Assembly: GCA_964504365.1 (NCBI GenBank)
Contig: CAZDDW010000007.1
Span: forward strand, 1 to 52,728
DNA length: 52,728 nt
Direction: 5' to 3'
Origin: an uncultured Gammaproteobacteria bacterium
Lineage (GTDB): Bacteria > Patescibacteriota > Patescibacteriia > UBA9934 > CAZDDW01
Shown: positions 36,203 through 37,287 of the stretch, piece after piece
Layout: each line of letters starts with the position of its first letter
Position numbering within the stretch: the first letter of the stretch is position 1
The notes under the pieces: model-generated
Told to the model about the DNA's origin: nothing
The model's database searches: none
What the model saw: the letters and a program-made list of their open reading frames with translations, nothing else
Made by a program: the position numbers and the translations under genes

Positions 36203-37287
36203 TACCGCTACGGAAGCTTCCGGACGGAAAGGACGGCCCGGCAACGGGTCAACACTGCATTCCAAACGTCAAACTGGGATGTATAAGATGCGCCGCGCGC
36301 GTGTCGCCACCTCATGGCAGCAAGCCACGTACCGCAGCTGGACCGGTCATACCGGATAAGGCTCGACCCTCTCTGAGGGGTGAATGGTCGTTAAGGCCAT
36401 CAGGCTGAACGTCAAGATGAAAGCCAGTGCATGACCGCCTGGCACGAGGGAGTGGAAAACCCTCAATGACCATACTCGATCTGGATAACTTGTTCTTGAG
36501 ACACGGAGTCGAGACCTGGAGCTAAGGCGCGAGCCAAGGCAAAGGGTCCACGAGACCTGTCACTGGAATAAGCCCAGCAGAGCCACCAAGGCAAGTCCTG
36601 GAGGCGAGAGTATGTCACGCTGCGGTTTACGGACGAGCCATCGTGCACCGTAGCAGCGTGAGTGGCTCCGGTAGAACCTGAGCCAAACGAGAACTTCGTG
36701 ATCGCCTGCGGACCGGATCCGACAAGGATCGTTCACAGGATCGAAGAGCTCACGGTGACCAAGGTCACCAACAGTCCTTTCTAGGAAGAACCGAAGCATG
36801 TGCGAGGTTAGGAAACCGAAACGACAGTTTCAGAAACGACCAAAGGAAGCTCGAGGTAACACTTGAGAAACCGTTGGACAAAGTAAGGAACCAGAAACAG
36901 AGGTAGCTTGACTCCGGAACTAGTGGTAAAGAACCGCACCAACGGACCGTCGCAAGACGGAAACGAAGTGGTACAGACACGAGGTAACACTCGTAGACGT
37001 AAAAGGAACTAGCCATTGCATCAACTCCTCACAAGGGAGATGAACCGGTCCGCACAAGGTGCGGATTCTCGAGAGAGGGTAACGTAGCTAGCACTCACGA
37101 TCGAACGATGTCCTCGGACACCGACCACACGATCAACTTCAACTGCGCAAGCAGAGGAAGGAGAGCAACAACGGCAACGTAGCCAATCCAGCTCAGCTGG
37201 ACTCCCGAGTCTCCGTCACCAACCAACTCCAGCGACTTGATCGCTGACACTCATCAAGGCCTCACCACGTGGGGCCTTCTTTATTTT
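36203..37287 (+). ncRNA. Candidate large structured ncRNA 3 (~1.07 kb), class unassigned
   Basis: No + strand ORF in the track; many short hairpins with GNRA/GUAAC/ACAA loops, A-rich linkers, long-range helices; bounded by promoter and terminator. Confidence 0.75.
37256..37287 (+). terminator. Intrinsic terminator T3
   Basis: AAGGCCTCAC/GTGGGGCCTT + T-rich tail; second hairpin at 37290-37326. Confidence 0.8.

Follow-up and report, generated by a model that had tools for sequence, protein, structure and literature searches.

The transcription unit

The 52,728-nucleotide (nt) stretch of DNA analysed here, referred to as the window, is contig CAZDDW010000007.1 (C7) of a genome, G000, that comprises 1,065,924 bases in 19 contigs, is 98.9% complete and has a G+C content of 46%. 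The longest gap in this genome without open reading frames (ORFs) of at least 90 amino acids lies at positions 35703–37621 of the window (1919 nt, 53% G+C) and contains a gene predicted to encode a large structured RNA. Four units, each running from a promoter to a terminator, are found on the plus strand of the gap region (35309–35758, 35771–36142, 36168–37278 and 37339–37571/37608), and the giant RNA is the third of them. As the promoter and the terminator bracket positions 36203–37287, this interval is taken as the predicted transcript (Table 1). An earlier note on this DNA, made from the sequence alone, had placed a candidate giant RNA at these same positions, and its borders prove right to within a base or two when compared with the promoter, the terminator stem and the start of an RNA-library contig at 36204. 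A stretch of 36 nt running from the promoter into the 5’ end of the RNA is identical in G000 and in the only homologue found, in a genome of the same genus (G002).

Directly upstream of the −35 hexamer lies the 9-mer TTATCCACA (TGTGGATAA on the plus strand), which resembles a DnaA box and is treated as a candidate site by sequence; G002 has CTGTGGATAAC at this position. The presence of the DnaA-box-like 9-mer upstream of the −35 hexamer in both species suggests that transcription of the RNA is regulated. The 9-mer occurs 28 times in the G000 genome, against about 8 copies expected, frequently between genes and near promoter-like sequences, and two copies that lie 38 nt apart on contig C10 (30871 and 30909) might mark a replication origin. 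An origin within the window was considered and dropped, as the window holds a single perfect DnaA-type box and its GC skew shows no turn.

ORFs in the RNA region are all of 83 amino acids or fewer, and the nine ORFs of 40–83 amino acids inside the RNA match no Pfam family at the curated cut-off; a pseudogene remnant was dropped as a candidate, given no Pfam signal. Translated comparison of G000 with G002 (tblastx) gave matches limited to the conserved nucleotide blocks and spread over several frames. It is highly improbable that the unit is an mRNA, or a leader, for one or more small proteins: plus-strand ORFs of 57 amino acids (36186–36359) and 40 amino acids (36662–36784) would be compatible with such a role, but the first starts upstream of the predicted RNA start, neither has a Pfam match or frame-consistent conservation with G002, and the RNA unit has a terminator of its own, with the next unit starting from its own promoter.

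The RNA in public metatranscriptomes

The RNA stretch is nearly complete in eight public runs of two studies labelled as marine or seawater metagenome; the assembly may derive from two of these runs, and metatranscriptomes of a single study account for two. Contigs of four of the runs (two RNA, two DNA) were placed on positions 31500–42000 of the window, divided into 30 bins. Two metatranscriptome contigs are identical to the window, one over 36204–37115 (912 nt, word depth 83.7) and the other over 36220–37150 (931 nt, word depth 33.4), the first of them starting 8 nt after the −10 hexamer. The DNA runs have a depth of 5.8–6.1 on the same stretch and cover all 30 bins, with contigs that join the RNA to the sequence on either side; these joins, together with the position of the G002 copy at the same place, locate the RNA in the chromosome. 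In the RNA runs the other bins, those of the three small units and the flanking genes included, have no cover apart from a single contig (X5; 157 nt at 33116–33272, depth 5.5), and no conclusion is drawn from the uncovered bins, the contigs being those of one study. The RNA-library evidence for an abundant transcript is thus good but not final.

Folding compared with shuffled sequence

The 1085-nt RNA of G000 has a minimum free energy of −417.1 kcal/mol, compared with −349.0 ± 8.8 kcal/mol in 40 dinucleotide shuffles (z −7.8), a fold beyond chance. The opposite strand gives a z of −3.1, and an adjacent coding stretch of equal length, used as a control, gives −1.7 and −3.2. Values for the G002 copy are −6.85 on the plus strand and −4.2 on the minus strand, and −9.26 by the folding tool’s own shuffles. 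The minimum-energy fold of the G000 RNA contains 27–28 hairpins. GNRA tetraloops number four in G000 (shuffle mean 0.47) and six in G002 (about 0.5 in shuffles), and none of 30 shuffles reaches either count. Segments that cannot be aligned between the species nevertheless fold well in both, with z values of −4.4/−4.4 and −3.5/−4.6. The RNA is composed of 28.9% A and 16.0% U. By length, number of helices and folding beyond chance, both the G000 and the G002 copy fall into the descriptive class of large ornate structured RNAs. The tetraloop-receptor motifs CCUAAG and UAUGG are absent from G000 and occur once each in G002, and a reading of the folds found no palindromic loop common to both copies that would fit a symmetric kissing contact.

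A three-domain skeleton conserved between two species

The conserved sequence blocks coincide with the strands of three long-range helices, here called P1, P2 and P3, which close three successive domains in the predicted fold (Table 1). P1, P2, P3 and a central nested hairpin are predicted in the independent folds of both copies. The conserved stretch AGUCCUUUC...AGCAU(U)GUGC(G/A)AGG, at 36773–36806, is present in both species; the rest of the P1 3’ strand has another sequence in G002 and yet, read by eye, can base-pair with the conserved 5’ end once the register is shifted. Fourteen pairs of P3 are invariant between the species and one pair is changed on one side, while the insert that P3 encloses is about 75 nt longer in G000 than in G002. 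In the central block both independent folds are nested alike and a consensus fold is obtained (z −3.1 in G000 and −2.1 in G002).

The 3’ domain, from 37003 onward, has a column identity of 74% between the two copies. Its consensus structure has 42 pairs that are 100% paired in both RNAs, six of which are changed on both sides, compared with none in six slid controls; eight of 500 shuffles reach six. Between the conserved blocks the identity falls to 39–46%, no higher than in a forced alignment, and the lengths of the intervals differ by about 100 nt between the species in alternating directions. Whole-length MAFFT alignment misplaces the P1 3’ strand, which neither E-INS-i nor L-INS-i remedies, and piecewise alignment between anchors leaves the variable parts about 40% identical and makes the alignment of the 3’ domain worse. 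The 35 compensatory pairs that RNAalifold reports on the whole-length alignment are not used as evidence because that alignment is unreliable. With two sequences only, parts of which are unalignable, no global covariation signal is possible.

The skeleton differs in part from the pairings given in the earlier note. The eight local hairpins listed there are all present in the sequence, and seven of them appear in the minimum-energy fold; the remaining one, TCCGCAC-AAG-GTGCGGA, has a pair probability of about 0.013, as both of its arms are used by P2 and P3, which are kept in both species. A long-range helix had been drawn between 36504–36517 and 36901–36916; its pair probability is 0.0, and G002 has no partner sequence by reading, so this pairing finds no support. 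The second long-range helix, 36871–36877 with 36939–36945, is a perfect 7-base-pair (bp) complement with a probability of 0.13, and compensatory changes in it are seen only on an alignment that is unreliable there.

Table 1. Predicted features of the giant RNA gene in window coordinates. Pairing probabilities are those of the G000 fold.
Feature	Positions	Strand	Remarks
DnaA-box-like 9-mer TTATCCACA	36153..36161	−	Directly upstream of −35; sole perfect copy in the window
Sigma-70-type promoter, TTGACA / 17-nt spacer / TAGACT	36168..36196	+	Score 10/12; hexamers and spacing identical in G002 (by eye)
RNA, about 1085 nt, from predicted start to end of terminator T-tract	36203..37287	+	Signals, fold, RNA-run contigs; no Pfam match
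P1 5’ strand, GCUACGG / CUUCC / GGAAAGGAC	36207..36234	+	Pairs with 36774–36797; 20 bp in three segments, mean probability 0.95–0.98
Central block, nested hairpin GGAGUCG...AGCCAAGGCAAA...CGAGACC	36497..36580	+	61% identity, compared with 39–46% in variable parts
P1 3’ strand, GUCCUUUCU / GGAAG / CCGAAGC	36774..36797	+	Closes 5’ domain of about 590 nt; AGUCCUUUC kept in G002
P2 5’ strand, UGUGCG	36799..36804	+	Pairs with 37051–37056, probability 0.93; closes domain II; closure recurs in G002 fold
Conserved hairpin AUCAACUCCU-CACAA-GGGAGAUGA	37021..37043	+	Compensatory changes at two pairs between the species, pairing kept
P2 3’ strand, CGCACA	37051..37056	+	Partner of 36799–36804
P3 5’ strand, GGUGCGGAUUCUCGAGAG	37058..37075	+	Pairs with 37202–37220; 15 bp, probability 0.90; closes domain III
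Branched insert in domain III	37080..37172	+	No aligned G002 counterpart; about 19 G002 bases across these columns
Hairpin UCCAGC-UCA-GCUGGA	37187..37201	+	Compensatory changes at four of six pairs in G002 (CCUGGA-UCU-UCCAGG), pairing kept
P3 3’ strand, CUCCCGAGUCUCCGUCACC	37202..37220	+	Partner of 37058–37075
Conserved hairpin CAGCGA-CUUGA-UCGCUG	37230..37246	+	Stem invariant, loop differs
Intrinsic terminator, 10-bp stem (37256–37278) then T-tract	37256..37287	+	Terminator at equivalent place in G002, on second contig (by eye)

These observations bear on the possibility that the locus is transcribed but largely unconstrained, either as decaying foreign G+C-rich DNA or as a young lineage-specific transcript. 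Such an origin would account for evolution faster than that of the flanking genes, for the absence of the RNA from the nearest relatives and for the lack of a whole-length covariation signal, and strongly negative folding windows are found in other ORF-free gaps of G000 too. We nevertheless regard it as improbable: the excess of folding is strand-specific in both species and extends to the parts that cannot be aligned, GNRA tetraloops are enriched about ten-fold in both copies, the promoter, the terminator and the identical 36-nt 5’ block are kept, the 3’ domain carries compensatory changes, and the locus combines high depth in the RNA runs with no trace of protein homology.

Repeated motifs and local duplication

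A partial internal duplication in G000 places the 12-mer CGAGGTAACACT at both 36852 and 36980; no tandem repeats, arrays or regular repeats were found in the RNA. The pentamer CAAGG occurs seven times in G000 (1.9 expected) and six times in G002 (1.7 expected), about 3.5-fold over expectation in both (z ~3.6), and it often lies within or beside hairpin loops of the predicted folds. This distribution would suit an RNA of the 6S, CsrB or Ms1 type that sequesters a protein, with a loop motif titrating an RNA-binding protein or RNA polymerase, and the fast turnover of modules would be explained by such a role; the local duplication and the large insertions and deletions between the species are in keeping with it, as is the failure of the 6S model (RF00013) to find a 6S RNA in the genome, which leaves that role not visibly filled. 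The silence of the 6S search means little, since the model detects its target in only five of 14 control genomes. Set against a sequestering role are the nature of the conserved parts, which are long-range helices and the central block rather than a loop motif in several copies, the lack of a CsrA gene in the genome (PF02599) and the count of GGA in G002 (16 compared with 16.8 expected); these last two observations led us to drop a CsrA sponge, and we hold protein sequestration in general to be unlikely.

Comparison with known RNA families

A scan of the whole window with Rfam 15 gave no match at a family’s gathering score, and large-RNA families are unmatched even at E ≤ 10 in 35300–37800 and in the G002 copy. 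Whole-genome searches at E ≤ 10 with GOLLD (RF02032), ROOL (RF03087), OLE (RF01071) and group II intron (RF01998, group-II-D1D4-1) models returned nothing; the ROOL and OLE controls say nothing about power, since none of 14 control genomes gave a match. Weak sub-threshold matches (mir-375 and Ocean-VII on the minus strand, Phe_leader on the terminator) were discarded as far below their thresholds and not repeated in G002. RNase P RNA (RF00010; C1:28081–28492, 159.9 bits) and tmRNA (RF00023; C15:5355–5769, 114.8 bits) are found elsewhere in the genome, and the candidate RNA matches neither model. By covariance-model tests, the RNA therefore lies outside the GOLLD, ROOL, OLE, HEARO-type, intron, RNase P and tmRNA families.

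A prophage or tRNA-rich neighbourhood is typical of GOLLD and ROOL. The 52.7-kb window contains no tRNA and the RNA has no match in the phage collection searched, which places it outside that setting. Its neighbours are a SecDF-PPIase gene, a LOG gene, a NUDIX gene and ORFs without a family, which differs from the OLE setting of particular hosts and partner genes, although no search was aimed at oap genes. Nor does the locus resemble a group II intron, as there is no intron model match and the ORFs of 83 amino acids or fewer have no Pfam family. The earlier note had offered two identities for the RNA: membership as a divergent GOLLD/ROOL-like RNA fails on the Rfam scan and on the GOLLD, ROOL, OLE and intron covariance models, while its alternative, a new class, fits an independently transcribed, non-coding fold of about 1.08 kb that has a sister-species homologue with the same skeleton and contigs in RNA libraries. 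The literature on non-coding RNA of Uhrbacteria, Patescibacteria and the candidate phyla radiation contained no such RNA among the matches listed (for Patescibacteria, judged by title).

In large ribozymes the skeleton is conserved while the peripheral hairpins vary, and GNRA loops and A-rich joints are common; the RNA resembles them in these respects, as a catalytic RNA with a conserved core and a variable periphery in the manner of RNase P or group I and II introns might. We consider catalysis decidedly improbable. The RNA matches no ribozyme or intron model, the region has neither flanking exons nor an intron-encoded protein, RNase P RNA is accounted for elsewhere in the genome, and the two sequences define very few invariant unpaired nucleotides.

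Distribution and synteny

BLAST over 60 relatives found a single homologue, of about 925 nt, in G002, where it is split over two contig ends; two further matches (21–34 nt, E 1.4e-3 and 5.4e-3) were taken as chance. The G002 copy is syntenic, with the SecDF-PPIase gene upstream at a distance and the LOG and NUDIX genes downstream; the proteins adjoining the RNA differ between G000 and G002, and the RNA keeps its place beside LOG. Two relatives, G001 from the same genus and G003 from the same family, have a SecDF–LOG slot of only about 1.4–1.5 kb, which holds a small promoter–terminator unit and other ORFs but no relative of the RNA. A covariance model of the 3’ domain (R1), run with laxer filters, gave best E values of 0.44 and 1.3 on these two genomes. 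BLAST over 400 genomes of the class found no homologue, and R1 found no true further homologue in 150 genomes of the order; an extra match in G006 (E 0.0029) is false, lying inside a 540-amino-acid ORF that resembles a chaperonin by reading. The RNA had no blastn match in 50,697 phage and 72,556 plasmid records, viral contigs and metagenome contigs (two patterns each) gave no matches, and a 20-mer scan of species-representative genomes returned the G002-type record and three records with chance matches of 20–22 nt only. As no other search gave a homologue, the family consists so far of two species of one genus.

The patchy distribution within the genus would agree with the RNA being cargo of a variable, possibly mobile, G+C-rich island, whether phage-derived, a defence element or a selfish element. 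The SecDF–LOG slot differs in all four genomes of the family and carries G+C-rich ORFs without Pfam families, and the upstream 385-amino-acid ORF gives weak Atlas leads to helix-turn-helix and sigma-70-region-2 clusters rich in viral members (score 0.91, with 123 shared features, where true members of a family typically reach 170). At 32565 the contigs of both DNA runs have loose ends that read different sequence leftward, and depth is raised in 32553–32903; this position may be the left edge of such an island, or a repeat common to related strains. However, of five neighbouring ORFs none matches PADLOC and four match no PHROG, the fifth matching an uncharacterised family weakly (E 0.0037); the window lacks tRNAs, the ORFs scanned include no integrase, and the RNA is without a match in the phage, plasmid and viral sets. 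The adjoining proteins, moreover, differ between G000 and G002 while the RNA stays beside LOG. We rate an origin as island cargo as quite unlikely.

Neighbouring units and other loci

A second stand-alone unit of about 420 nt lies at 35309–35765 on the plus strand, with a perfect TTGACA-17-TATAAT promoter (35309–35337) and a terminator (35741–35758). Its fold z is −6.1 on the plus and −5.05 on the minus strand, and a 15-bp closing helix, GGCAGGTTTCTGGGT ... ACCCAGAAACCTGCC, is discernible by eye. At its 3’ end, which carries a CCUCCC stretch and the terminator, there is a sub-threshold match to the suhB/mmgR small RNA (26.7 bits compared with 41; E 0.009), and no homologue of the unit was found among 20 relatives. 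A third, small unit of about 340 nt (35771–36150, plus strand) has a z of about −3 on both strands. The 28-nt terminators at 35740–35767 and 36124–36151 are identical, and a related hairpin (80% identical) lies inside the giant RNA at 36362–36381; the units may share ancestry or have arisen by duplication. Downstream, the plus-strand unit at 37339–37612 has a TTGACA-17-TATTAT promoter, two terminator-like hairpins and an ORF of 45 amino acids (37464–37601) after a GGAG; with this ORF, which has no Pfam match, it may be a small-protein gene. G002 has at the place of this unit a 246-amino-acid ORF with only sub-threshold matches to alpha/beta-hydrolase families.

Small units of about 200–260 nt also occupy the SecDF–LOG slot of the relatives (G001, L009 ~175–470; G003, L010 ~945–1175; G002, L007 ~6930–7160). 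They have a −10 hexamer of the TAGACT or TAAAAT type, and a C-rich ...CACAC.TAC... stretch before the terminator looks alike by eye across G000–G003; homology is not claimed, because BLAST of 35300–36160 gave no match in those genomes.

On the minus strand, 32689–35272 holds two G+C-rich ORFs (485 and 385 amino acids; 53–57% G+C); neither belongs to a Pfam, PHROG or PADLOC family, and G002 lacks a counterpart of both. Beyond them, 30379–32385 (minus strand) encodes a SecD-type protein of 668 amino acids with a peptidyl-prolyl isomerase (PPIase, rotamase) domain inserted or fused, which is conserved in the family; the G002 match to it is broken by one TAA. Further away, 11787–29438 (minus strand) contains nine head-to-tail ORFs of 577–611 amino acids, two of which were tested and have no Pfam family, and the array is broken by a 480-amino-acid ORF with TrwB/TraG-type coupling-protein domains (24322–25764). 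The arrangement suggests an array of uncharacterised paralogous genes.

Other long ORF-free gaps of G000 have no Rfam match at gathering score (C1:6377–7924, C12:14375–15555, C1:175546–176460 and C5:12268–13140). Windows of 400 nt in these gaps gave fold z values of −7.1/−6.9 (C1:6377–6776), −8.0/−4.8 (C1:175546–175945) and −6.2/−2.6 (C12:14725–15124), and the gaps may hold further undescribed RNAs.

Discussion

On balance we favour the view that the locus encodes a large non-coding RNA, belonging to a family not described before and working through its fold as a scaffold or as a particle-forming RNA. Transcription would start at ~36203/36204, behind the unit’s sigma-70-type promoter, and end at its intrinsic terminator (~37287), and the RNA would fold as three domains closed by P1, P2 and P3. 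The closing helices, the central block (36497–36580) and a few hairpins are the conserved part; the peripheral hairpins set between them, several of them GNRA-capped, and the A-rich linkers make up the remainder, with the peripheral hairpins turning over fast through insertion, deletion and local duplication. The property under selection would then be the fold, and the conserved helices, central block, GNRA loops and A-rich joints could be ingredients of a compact tertiary structure and of RNA–RNA contacts. Like OLE, ROOL or GOLLD, such an RNA might offer a compact scaffold on which proteins, or further copies of the RNA, assemble. Coding, antisense pairing and a simple repeat-motif sponge are probably not its mode of action.

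Several observations count against this interpretation. The RNA has about 444–456 identical aligned positions over 883 G002 bases (~50%), compared with 68–76% DNA identity in the flanking genes, and the copies differ in length (1085 nt in G000 and ~925 nt in G002); judged by these alignments, the RNA is evolving faster than the neighbouring genes. P1–P3 are backed mostly by conservation and little by compensatory change, and the consensus structure used in the covariation test of the 3’ domain was derived from the same two sequences, which makes it a weak basis. On the whole-length, sequence-only alignment, changed pairs of the G000 fold are still paired in G002 in 33% of cases, compared with 30% in 1360 decoy stems. 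The RNA is seen in two genomes only; it was not found in G001 (96% complete) or G003 (99% complete), and no conserved neighbouring protein was seen that would hint at a partner or pathway. Both RNA contigs end 130–170 nt before the terminator; a DNA contig (X4) ends at 37170 too, so the break may stem from differences between strains in the insert and not from the end of the RNA. Finally, these contigs are no reliable guide to strand, ends or level, and the two RNA runs belong to a single study, which is why the evidence for an abundant transcript stops short of final.

A more far-reaching reading, which we offer tentatively and think less likely to hold than to fail, is that the RNA is the first member of a class of giant RNAs specific to the candidate phyla radiation, with a small skeleton of the three closing helices and the central block carrying fast-evolving hairpin modules, a large share of the RNA of an ultra-small cell and a self-assembled or protein-assembled particle with its own cellular role. 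If so, it could for instance be a scaffold that replaces protein machinery missing from a reduced genome, or a particle that serves an episymbiotic lifestyle. Among the literature matches listed, we found no large structured RNA described for the candidate phyla radiation. As the host genomes are of about 1 Mb, a 1-kb non-coding gene at high depth is a notable investment. Should the fold and the abundance hold, the RNA would give structural work a new target, exemplify a large RNA evolving by turnover of modules on a small skeleton and open a way into the biology of uncultivated marine Uhrbacteria; were it island cargo instead, it would suggest that mobile elements of these bacteria have RNA-based functions.

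Relation to known large RNAs

Only a handful of large structured RNAs without a known function have come from bacteria, among them OLE, GOLLD, ROOL and raiA, and each of them has given unexpected biochemistry or structure. Architecturally, and as an analogy only, the present RNA may be likened to RNase P RNA, with which it shares a core of long-range helices bearing species-specific peripheral hairpins and insertions; it differs in being about three times longer and in having no RF00010 match. Like RNAs of the 6S, CsrB and Ms1 types, it stands alone between a promoter and a terminator, seems abundant and evolves fast, but it is much larger, has no 6S match, comes from a genome in which no CsrA gene was found, and conserves helices rather than repeated loop motifs.

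OLE is described as a many-helix bacterial non-coding RNA of about 600 nt, a stable transcript that is proposed to be the scaffold of a particle (PMC12286853). Its hosts are reported to be Gram-positive extremophiles or anaerobes that carry genes for OLE-associated proteins. The RNA described here is likewise a large many-helix bacterial non-coding RNA; it differs from OLE in having no model match, a host of the candidate phyla radiation and no conserved partner genes adjoining, in being about 1.8 times longer, and in a sequence conservation that is far lower, judged from two copies. A-minor contacts and kissing loops are reported to build multimers of OLE, ROOL and GOLLD (a dimer, an 8-mer and a 14-mer); the sequences of ROOL and GOLLD are there called ‘not highly conserved’, their stems being kept and covariation seen over many sequences (PMC12286853). 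The RNA shares with ROOL and GOLLD its size class, which spans hundreds to about 1000 nt, a fold densely packed with helices, elements of the GNRA and A-rich kinds that would suit A-minor contacts, and an unknown function; it is set apart from them by matching neither model, by lying outside a phage or tRNA neighbourhood and by being known from two sequences.

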